Shown here in pieces: positions 20,301 to 23,300 of a stretch of DNA of 64,000 nt (position 1 is the first letter of the stretch; each line of letters opens with the position of its first letter). This DNA comes from Gemmatimonadales bacterium (lineage in GTDB: Bacteria > Gemmatimonadota > Gemmatimonadetes > Gemmatimonadales > GWC2-71-9), in assembly GCA_038321865.1 (NCBI GenBank), contig JBBQFH010000001.1, forward strand, positions 1 to 64,000. The letters run 5' to 3'. The position numbers are program-made.

Positions 20301-23300
20301 AAGCGGGCCAGTTCGTCGGCCGCCGCCTGCATCTTGGCCGGCTCGACTCCGAAGCGCTTGGCCAGGTCGTTCCAGCGGTGCGCGATCAGATCGTTGAACG
20401 CCTCCGAGACGAGGCGGTAGGTCAGCGACGTCGAATCCTTCTGGTCAGCCAGCTGCAGGAGGAGGCACTCACGCAGGTCACGCGCGCCCACGCCGGCCGG
20501 GTCGAGGTGCTGGATGATGCCGAGCATCTCCTCGACGTCGGCCATCGTGTACAGGGCCGCGTCCGGAATCTGCCGGCTCTCCTCGCTGTCGTCGTCGTCC
20601 GGAACGTCCTCGGCGAAGTGGCCGGAGACCAGCTGGTTGACGGAGCCGAGGATCTCCTCGAGCGACGCGCCGAGATAGCCGTCATCCATGATGTTGCCCA
20701 GAAACTCCTCGCTCAGCAGCCGCTGGCGCGGTGTCAGGGTGAGGAGCTGCAGCTGCTCGCGCAGGTGATCGGAAAGATCCTTCACCTCGACCGAGACCGG
20801 CTCAATGTATTCCTGCTGCTCGAACTGTTCGCGGGTGCCGCCGACTTCAAAGCCGTTGAGCAGGATCTCTTCCCAGTCGACCTCGTCCTCTTTTTCCGCC
20901 TTCTCCTTTTCCTGCTCGCTCGTCTTTTCTTCCGGTGTTTCCTCCTCTTCCGGCTCGAGCAGCTCAAGGAACGGGTTGGCCAGCAGCTCCTGCTTCAGAT
21001 GCTGCTGCAGATCCATCATGGGCATGTAGAGCATGTCCATGGCCTGATAGAGCCGCGGATTGATCCGCAGCTCCTGCCGAAGCCCCGTGTGCTGCGAAAG
21101 ACCGGTTTTCACGCGACTGCCTCGAGTCGCGACCGCAGTCGCGTCGTGAGGGTTGGGCCGAGGTACAGCTGCGCGACCCGGTCGTTGTACACCAGGTCAC
21201 GTACGCTGCCCGAGGCCTGCACTTTGCCTTCGAACATGATGTAGGCTCGATCCACGATATCCAGCGTCTGCTCGACATTATGGTCGGTGATCAGGACGCC
21301 GATGCCGCGGTGACGCAGCCCGGCGACGATGGTCTGAATGTCATGCACCGCGATCGGGTCCACCCCCGCGAACGGCTCATCCAGCAGCATGAACCGCGGC
21401 TCGGTGACGAGCGCACGGGTGATCTCCAGCCGCCGCCGTTCCCCGCCGCTCAACGCGTATGCCCGGCTCTTGCGCAGGTGGCGGATGGACAGCTCGTCCA
21501 ACATCCGCTCGAGCTCGCGATCCCGCTCCCTGGCCGGCAGTTTCCGCGTCTCCAAGATCGCGAGGATGTTCTCCTCGACCGTCATCCGCCGGAAAATCGA
21601 AGGCTCCTGGGCCAGGTAGCCGATCCCGCGGCGGGCGCGCACGTACATCGGCAGGCCGGAGAGGTCCTCCCCGTCGAGCAGCACCCGCCCGGCATTGGGC
21701 CGGATCAGTCCGGTAATGAGGTAGAACGTGGTCGTCTTCCCGGCGCCGTTCGGCCCCAGCAGCCCCACGATCTCGCCCTGCTCGACCCGGACGCTGACGT
21801 CGTCCACAACGCGGCGGCCGCGGAAGCTCTTGCGCAGGCCGTCACCCTCAAGCACGCTCCGAGGTCCTGTCGGTGCCCGCCGCACCGGAGTCTGCAGGTT
21901 GTGCCGTGCGACCGCAATCAACGCCTCGAACGACTCGACCCGGTTCCCCGCCGCCGCCGGCCACCAGTCACCCTGGGCCTGGATCGCTTCCCAGCCAATG
22001 CTGCTGGTGTCGTCGATCCACCCCTCGCTGGCCAGGCGCGGCAACAGCGACGCGCCGAGGTGGGTGCGGACTTCATCTTCCGAGAGCGTGGGCTCCTTGC
22101 CCCTGAGGGCGTCGCGGTAGCAGATCATGAACGTTTCACGATACGCCATGAGCAGCTCTGGCAGGCCCAGGGCACCCCACTGTCCGGCGGCGCGCACGAT
22201 CGCCGCGAGGGTGAGCGGAACCGATGGATCGCGCCGGGTGACGGCGCCGAGCCATTCGCCGCTCATCGCCGCGCCGGAATCGGTGTCGTCCGCGGCGCGG
22301 TGCTGGCCGTCTGCGGCTCGATCTGGACCCCGTCGGCATGCCCGCGGACGTCGACTCGCTCCACCGCTTCGGCGCCGGACTTCTTCATGGTCATCGTGAT
22401 GGCGTCGCCGCGAACGTAGCTGAGTGACGGCGCCCGGCCGGGCTTGTCACTCCGCTCCTGGTGCAGCGACCGCGCCGAATGCCGGGCCCGGACCACGTCG
22501 AGCGCGGTCCGTGTCGTGCCGGACGAGTCGCGCTGCACGAACGCCGCGACGATCGTATCGGCCTCGAGCCAATCCCGGTTGCGCGTGACCGAATCCACGG
22601 CGCCTCCAACCCAGCCGCGTCCGAAGACCCGGGCCTCCGTCAACAGCTGCTTCGGCGTGTCGAAGGCGAGCGAGTCGCCCCGGACTTCGTAGCGCTTGCC
22701 CGTTGCCACCGGCCGGGTGGTCCGGCCCCAGGCGAACATCTGCTCGACCTTGTGCTGCTCAACCGCGACGCGGATCGTATCGGCGACCAGATCCCACTCC
22801 CCCTTGATCGCGTGGGCGTGCTCCTCGGCGCGAACGGAGCGCACCTGGCGTCCGGCCAGCTGGAAATCGATGCGGGTACCGCTGACGCTGAAGCTGTCGG
22901 CTCCGAGCCCGCGAAAAACCGGCCGGCCCACCAGCGTGCCGTCGTTCGCCTTCCCGGTATCGAGACGAATGGAATCCGACCGGGCCGCGATGTCGCTGCG
23001 GTCGATGGTGACGCGGCCGCCACCCCATACGCGGTCCTCGCCGAGCGCATGCAGCCGGTCCGCGACGATGACGTAGGGCTCCCGCTTCTCGCCGGCCGAG
23101 TCGCGCGCGAAGTAATCCACGTGCGGACGGCCGGAGGCAAGCACTTCGAAGGTATCGCGCACGCCGCTCACGCGTCGGAGATAATCCACCGACGGACCAC
23201 GGATGGTCGAGCCGCTCGTGAGGCTCCGCGACACCACGTTTCCACGCGCTTCCCAGCGTTCGGCCACCTTGCGGTATGTGACGCGATCGGCGTCCACGCT

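Follow-up and report, generated by a model that had tools for sequence, protein, structure and literature searches.

A predicted winged-helix domain fused to the N-terminus of LptB in Gemmatimonadales and other orders of the class

Introduction

LptB, the ATPase of the lipopolysaccharide transport (Lpt) system, is treated as a bare nucleotide-binding domain (NBD), and the cytoplasmic control of Lpt flux is an open question. Importer ABC ATPases can carry accessory domains, such as those of MalK and ModC (TOBE) and of MetN (C2), which are C-terminal and of beta or ACT-like fold. The protein described here is alike in having an extra, predicted cytoplasmic domain attached to its NBD that could bind a regulator, but the domain is an N-terminal winged helix and the ATPase belongs to a lipid extractor.

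In E. coli LptB, the switch-helix arginine R198 touches a short C-terminal loop, and the R198E substitution is lethal (PMC6703430). The LptB of the Gemmatimonadales genome studied here resembles the E. coli type in its family score, its invariant catalytic motifs, its lptC-lptA-lptB-rpoN operon and the presence of lptF, lptG and lptD. It differs in its N-terminal winged helix, in a glutamate at the position of R198, in a basic C-terminal helix and in a host without lipid A genes. A comparable host is Sphingomonas, which lacks LpxC, LpxB and WaaA but keeps Lpt, while in Caulobacter LptB powers sphingolipid export, LptF2/G2 working with a shared LptB, according to a preprint (bioRxiv 10.64898/2026.04.12.717747). 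The present genome shares the loss of lpx genes and waaA with retention of Lpt, and it has an operon whose predicted products are a serine palmitoyltransferase (Spt)-like enzyme, a GNAT protein and a protein resembling NAD-dependent epimerases. Compared with Sphingomonas and Caulobacter, it belongs to a different phylum, retains LpxK, and has one lptF/lptG pair that could be found.

As for the fold, the closest described domain is the C-terminal winged helix of Cdc6/Orc1 (PDB 1fnn, 1w5s), which is likewise joined to a P-loop ATPase. The present domain, however, precedes an ABC ATPase, where that of Cdc6/Orc1 follows an AAA+ ATPase; it is acidic and has no sequence-level match to Cdc6/Orc1. The sulfur-binding domain (SBD) of ScoMcrA-type phosphorothioate-dependent nucleases (PDB 8h0l, 7ccd, 5zmo) shares the helix order and the wing, but neither its H-K/R-P or Y-P pocket residues, as given in its description, nor profile-level similarity, nor a nuclease partner is found here (PMC6224610). 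A search of titles and abstract openings, PMC8871954 among them and subscription journals outside its coverage, returned no published description of an LptB-winged-helix fusion.

Results

The lptB gene and its operon

The window, by which we mean the whole stretch of 64,000 nucleotides analysed, carries at 21109–22266 of its reverse strand an uninterrupted 385-aa ORF in which LptB is fused in frame to an N-terminal domain of about 125 residues. The LptB family TIGR04406 matches residues 139–372 with 349.1 bits (cut-off 240), residues 1–135 match no Pfam or NCBIfam family, and Atlas gave no usable match for the protein, which bears out the preliminary description of a 385-aa LptB with an unannotated in-frame extension. 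On the reverse strand, the winged-helix domain (residues 1–125) is encoded at 21892–22266, a variable linker (residues 126–137) at 21856–21891, and the NBD (residues 138–370) at 21157–21855. An extended C-terminal helix (residues 362–384), with conserved R376, R378 and R380, is encoded at 21115–21183. Walker A and B, the Q-loop with the groove residues F225/R226, the signature and the H-switch H329 are invariant in 75/75 sequences.

The gene order is pyrG-lptC-lptA-lptB-rpoN, with overlapping genes throughout and all on the reverse strand. The CTP synthase gene pyrG (24127–25788) lies upstream in the same run and directly adjoins lptC (23579–24130), which is followed by an lptA-like gene (22263–23582; OstA/LptA family, weak match). 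The lptB start codon shares bases with the lptA stop codon (ATGA), and the start of the sigma-54 gene rpoN (19631–21112) overlaps the lptB stop. The genes lptF, lptG and lptD were found elsewhere in this genome (G000). A separately assembled contig matches 21281–23538 unbroken and with zero differences, although it possibly derives from the source sample and is not independent biological support. Named relatives of the protein are from Gemmatimonadales or Gemmatimonas (P0189; L208–L211). We read the sequence as a working LptB with an accessory winged helix on a flexible linker, predicted to lie on the cytoplasmic side of the Lpt machinery.

An internal start yielding a short LptB had also been proposed. 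Each of the 98 distinct loci that bear the domain has a start codon, 161–215 codons 5′ of Walker A, that overlaps a stop codon, and in 97 of them this stop terminates a long upstream frame; the second count is the stronger, since the search window was wide. The spacing from start to Walker A is 167–194 codons in one set of loci and 261 in L107. A start with a Shine-Dalgarno-like motif near the canonical LptB position occurs in 19/98 loci, at varying positions, against 57/490 background windows, and a conserved internal start can therefore be set aside, while a minor short product may exist in this genome.

Several loci depart from the usual layout. In L107 (G132), a low-complexity linker of ~110 residues separates the domain from the NBD, and the lptB frame extends far beyond the usual stop. 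In L103, L105 and L106 (family f7), lptA is far longer or multi-part, with several separate matches over ~2 kb. Elsewhere in the window, rpoN is followed at 13421–19634 by a glycosylation run (GT2, GT4, an LPG-synthase-like membrane protein, a YfhO-like protein and a further GT2) that may modify a lipid or protein of the envelope; a GT2 gene is the first after rpoN in most class loci examined. A 222-aa ORF (26589–27257), whose N-terminus is hydrophobic and which matches nothing in Pfam or NCBIfam, lies upstream of a trpG-like gene and pyrG, and a gene that joins a DedA/VTT membrane protein to a TerB-like domain (30942–31958) overlaps xerD.

Fold of the N-terminal domain

The preliminary description called the extension mostly helical and left its fold unresolved (pLDDT 47). 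Neither point held once AlphaFold2 was given an alignment: the domain model reaches a pLDDT of 92.6 and a pTM of 0.87, and is a mixed alpha/beta winged helix. Helices at 4–10 and 15–26, a strand at 32–34 and helices at 35–53 and 63–80 are followed by a wing that runs to a strand at 94–97, and then by helices at 101–107 and 109–125. The model thus contains the three-helix core, the short strand after helix 1 and the beta-hairpin wing of winged helices. The full-length model (pLDDT 90.8, linker 73–78; pTM 0.76) shows a long C-terminal helix and is compatible with packed or free domains.

The best structural match is a Cdc6/Orc1 winged helix (Z 10.8, rmsd 3.1, 104 aligned residues, 15% identity), followed by a second Cdc6/Orc1 (Z 10.0), ORC1 (9.2), Sir3 (8.2), the Hga sulfur-binding domain (7.7, 112 aligned) and TubR (7.2). 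DNA-binding winged helices (Cdc6/Orc1, TubR, SBD, DpnI) are among the top neighbours, the SBD structures at Z 6.0–7.7 over 107–117 aligned residues; a Z below 8 or an Atlas score below 0.9 was taken as a lead only. Foldseek found nothing at E≤0.001 in the PDB or a viral library; its matches agree in kind, and the best in the viral library are winged helices of a DUF262 protein and an AAA ATPase. Pfam gave nothing consistent on 68 domain members (best E 5e-4, in 3 members), nor did PADLOC and NCBIfam on 37 members, one of them in the wrong frame. A PDB sequence search with the domain returned no match, including none to Cdc6/Orc1. In Atlas, a basal member of the domain gave only leads below 0.9, including one to the SBD family at 0.84.

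Homology to SBDs was nevertheless rejected, as hhalign against 15 SBDs gave a probability of 0.1% and a score of 9.6, below the shuffled mean of 10.9, albeit with a shallow SBD profile (Neff 3.5). The SBD pocket residues H116, R/K117, Y164 and P165, as named in the source (PMC6224610), are present in the 15 SBDs and absent from this domain. As modelled, the winged-helix fold is secure, and the domain matches no named family.

Range, gain and loss

A profile (A1) built from 68 N-terminal segments was searched in 251 genomes of the phylum and matched 162. The domain is present in 144/169 genomes of the order (f1 91/113, f2 49/52, f3 3/3, plus G000), as the preliminary description had it for most of the order, and its range proved wider, with 18/63 genomes in the class's other orders (f4 4/4, f5 1/1, f6 1/15, f7 10/37, f8 2/3, f9 0/3). 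The profile matched 0/19 genomes of other classes, which agrees with the reported absence from distant genomes. An apparent Eubacteriales match (L212) fails the domain profile and, by eye, is presumably a RecF-like protein. These tallies, and those for LpxC and the Spt-like gene below, include four unpublished genomes (G077, G127, G180, G205), on which our conclusions do not depend; the G077 locus is also one row in the NBD tree, the site tests and the start-codon survey.

As the profile search scores just 15 candidates per genome, the lptB locus was read directly in 24 domain-less genomes of the order, and the domain was found in none. One match per genome is the rule, and no second copy was found in the present genome; the exception, G250, has matches on contigs C72 and C89, one of them at a contig end. 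On a tree of 152 NBDs (~248 columns; L031 and rows below 225 aa left out), the domain changes state at least 12 times, gain and loss not being distinguished. Domain-less forms of LptB branch within domain-bearing ones, and the short forms are directly coupled to lptA. The simplest reading of this tree would be a single early gain followed by many losses. In L031 (5610–6762; G068), domain and NBD lie in separate frames, probably through a sequence error, since the two share a frame in three further members of its genus. Genus g50 (L108 of G136; G168) has a diverged domain (E about 2e-13), possibly decaying, within a clade otherwise without it.

The domain is almost always single-copy and on LptB. 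Among the 150 best of 255 representatives, 32 carry an LptB NBD, two a piece of LptA, and 107 consist of all or part of the domain plus no more than 60 further residues; the remaining nine have other contents, and most of these look frameshifted or chimeric by eye. An ABC domain is present in all 38 longer matches of one search and in all of the best 120 of 757 in another, and further hosts of the domain may stand among the weaker matches. Protein P0092 (1339 aa, TIR_2) contains the entire domain at 347–470, 58% identical to a genus-g4 LptB domain. It is a singleton on one 5.8 kb contig and no genomic locus was found for it, so a chimeric assembly is possible. By eye, the flanks of its domain resemble a degenerate small GTPase, and its N-terminus resembles that of P0190 (TIR, AAA, ZapE-like). 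The domain (37 members) matched no PADLOC family, and no phage or plasmid match was obtained.

Charge, conservation and selection

The domain has a net charge of 0 to −9 in 68/68 members, and helix 63–80 together with the wing is net positive in just four; the basic recognition helix and wing of DNA-binding winged helices are thus wanting. Ordinary DNA binding is disfavoured, given that the domain is never net positive. Mean column identity in the 68-segment alignment is 36%. The wing sequence is variable, and the conserved positions are D13, S15, G31, R43, D64, L70, P76, R77, L78 and W102, most of which could be structural. The charged residues R43, D64, R67 and R77 are kept in at least 61/68 members, and P76 is not conserved in distant orders.

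In its own, lipid A-less genus, the domain has a dN/dS of 0.04–0.13 (10 pairs), with 0.03–0.08 for the NBD. Values for the domain are 0.09–0.29 in four lpxC-positive genera (19 pairs), 0.12–0.42 in g42 (3 pairs, one pair set at 0.37–0.42) and 0.16 for one g51/g87 pair, all of them rough because dS is near 1. These ratios indicate that the domain is under purifying selection.

The switch-helix position and the C-terminal helix

The position of E. coli R198 is occupied by E332 (codon at 21271–21273, reverse strand), the equivalent of R144 is still arginine, and the basic C-terminal helix takes the place of the short canonical C-terminal loop. Across 153 complete NBDs, 130 combine the glutamate with the helix and 23 the arginine with a short tail (L148 was put with the helix by eye, and L180 is incomplete). 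The combination probably arose as one event rather than many, and, as we read these sequences, E332 and the helix's new arginines would form a charge swap.

The winged helix occurs on both NBD types, 97 with glutamate and helix and two with arginine and short tail, and 33 NBDs of the former type are domain-less. A dependence of the domain on the C-terminal helix was therefore rejected; the helix is not required. A tip-based test for NBD sites that relax once the domain is gone singles out F345 and D336 (2 and 10 of 500 control sets), although the signal comes mostly from one clade, four of the eight groups possibly being a single clade, and domain-less outgroups likewise have F or Y at 345.

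Loss of lipid A genes in the host lineage

LpxC was detected in 242/251 genomes of the phylum and not found in G000, three g42 genomes, G115, G140, G206, G038 and G159, nor in 5/5 additional close relatives (80–91% complete). The G026 locus reads bamA-skp-lpxD-lpxC/fabZ-lpxA-dehydrogenase-lpxB-DUF374-lpxK-gdhA, and that of G000, G109 and G140 bamA-skp-fabZ-lpxK-gdhA on a single contig. Comparison of L182 (G000:C44), L183 and L184 with L181 shows a clean deletion in g1, g42 and g51 of lpxD, lpxA, lpxB, waaA, kdsA, kdsB and, out of an lpxC-fabZ fusion, the lpxC half; genera g45, g87 and g116 are likewise without lpxC. As the deletions lie inside contigs, they are not assembly gaps. With G026 LpxD, LpxA, LpxB and WaaA as queries, no match was obtained in G000, where KdsA scored below its cut-off and KdsB was not found. 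In lipid A-positive relatives, 1.5–2.9 kb with kdsA and other genes lie between pyrG and lptC; these are gone here, and lptC abuts pyrG in G000, G109, G115, G140, G278 and G283.

G000 keeps LptA–D, LptF and LptG (a single lptF/lptG pair was found), LpxK and an MsbA-like transporter that scores below its family cut-off. The gene for LpxK, the lipid A 4′-kinase, is an intact ORF beside deleted neighbours (L182:5754–6713, L183:8888–9853, L184:7942–8949), and the enzyme may phosphorylate another lipid. Going by gene content only, the Lpt cargo of G000 would not be lipid A-based LPS. An operon at L195 (G000:C27) 3–2712 encodes the Spt-like enzyme, which matches serine palmitoyltransferase best (536 bits, below the 640 cut-off), with the GNAT and NAD-dependent epimerase-like proteins. 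We take these gene families to be those of the ceramide pathway, and the operon is a likely, putative sphingolipid pathway. We found no published account of lipid A loss in Gemmatimonadota in a search with subscription journals mostly outside its coverage.

The domain tracks neither of these traits. Of the sampled LpxC-less genomes, 7/9 have it, and it is absent from lpxC-positive g5, g81, g89 and most of g11, and a link to lipid A was rejected on these grounds. The Spt-like gene occurs in 111/113 f1, 5/52 f2 and 0/37 f7 genomes, and a link to it fails on f2, where 49/52 genomes have the domain.

Discussion

We put at about an even chance that the domain is a docking or regulatory module on a tether, dispensable and acting independently of the cargo. 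The independence is suggested by a domain that stays under selection though the lipid A genes have been lost. Under this proposal, the class would have acquired the domain a single time and early on, probably from a protein that acts on DNA, and the domain would then have lost its basic DNA-binding face. Its present role would be to dock proteins or to act allosterically, tuning the dimer cycle of the ATPase or recruiting a partner from the cytoplasm, through a conserved patch formed by R12-D13-x-S15 at the start of helix 15–26 and P76-R77-L78 at the end of helix 63–80. Being accessory, it could be dropped without loss of transport. In favour are the confidently predicted fold, the acidic charge, the low dN/dS, a presence that depends on neither lipid A nor Spt-like genes, the 12 or more changes of state with short forms coupled to lptA, and the intact copy inside the TIR protein P0092. 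Against such a module, repeated clean loss fits a passenger equally well, co-variation with the domain is not clear for any surface of the NBD, mean column identity is low, most invariant residues could be structural, and one g42 pair set has a raised dN/dS. A folded passenger would be an old fusion whose leader has to fold and couple translation to lptA, or aids the solubility of LptB, with no regulatory partner. The 12 or more state changes without a clear trace in the NBD, the prevalence of Gly, Leu, Trp and helix caps among the conserved positions, and a loss that tracks neither lipid A nor Spt-like genes are all consistent with it. The short LptB, however, couples to lptA equally well, so a neutral leader should be lost in more than the ~15% of order genomes that lack it, and neither the dN/dS in its own genus, which approaches that of the ATPase, nor the charged R43, D64, R67 and R77 sit easily with a passenger; we consider it unlikely.

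Other roles can be proposed, to which we give less credence. Binding of nucleic acid, which would tether the transporter to the nucleoid or, as feedback, to its own operon or lptCAB-rpoN mRNA, would suit the many DNA-binding winged helices among the top neighbours, the presence of rpoN in the operon and a few conserved arginines, but it is quite improbable for a domain that is never net positive in 68 members (helix and wing positive in four), whose wing is variable and which has not kept the SBD pocket motif. There is a slim prospect that R12-D13-x-S15 and P76-R77 are the relic of an SBD-like pocket, in which a phosphate-bearing metabolite, such as a nucleotide or lipid precursor, would gate the ATPase. 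By eye, the conserved motifs appear to sit on the two helix ends where the SBD pocket lies, and the long SBD alignments and the Atlas match of the basal member point the same way; the latter two, though, are leads only, the profile comparison scores below its shuffled controls, and P76 is not kept in distant orders. Very improbable is an interface in conflict with phages, in which the domain is the target or sensor of a phage protein, can stop lipid export, and was captured by a TIR protein as bait. The whole domain in P0092 and the winged helices that lead the viral-library matches (DUF262 protein, AAA ATPase) speak for it, whereas P0092 is a single, possibly chimeric sequence with no locus on a 5.8 kb contig, and PADLOC, phage and plasmid matches are all wanting.

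A broader picture can be drawn around the docking or regulatory module, although we hold it unlikely as a whole: a lipid A-free Gemmatimonadales lineage might build its outer membrane from sphingolipids, or from another glycolipid, carried over the Lpt bridge, with an ATPase whose dimer switch has been rewired and a winged-helix control input that senses a partner or metabolite whatever the cargo, and that served as bait for a TIR protein.

A class-wide accessory domain that appears to be under selection offers a testable control point for Lpt flux, and close relatives supply natural pairs of long and short LptB. The equivalent of R198E and a new C-terminal helix in one protein make a natural test of the published model of the switch helix and C-terminus. 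The host lineage looks like an independent case of lipid A loss with Lpt kept, comparable to Sphingomonas as described in the preprint (bioRxiv 10.64898/2026.04.12.717747), and it adds a case in which to ask what Lpt carries when there is no LPS.
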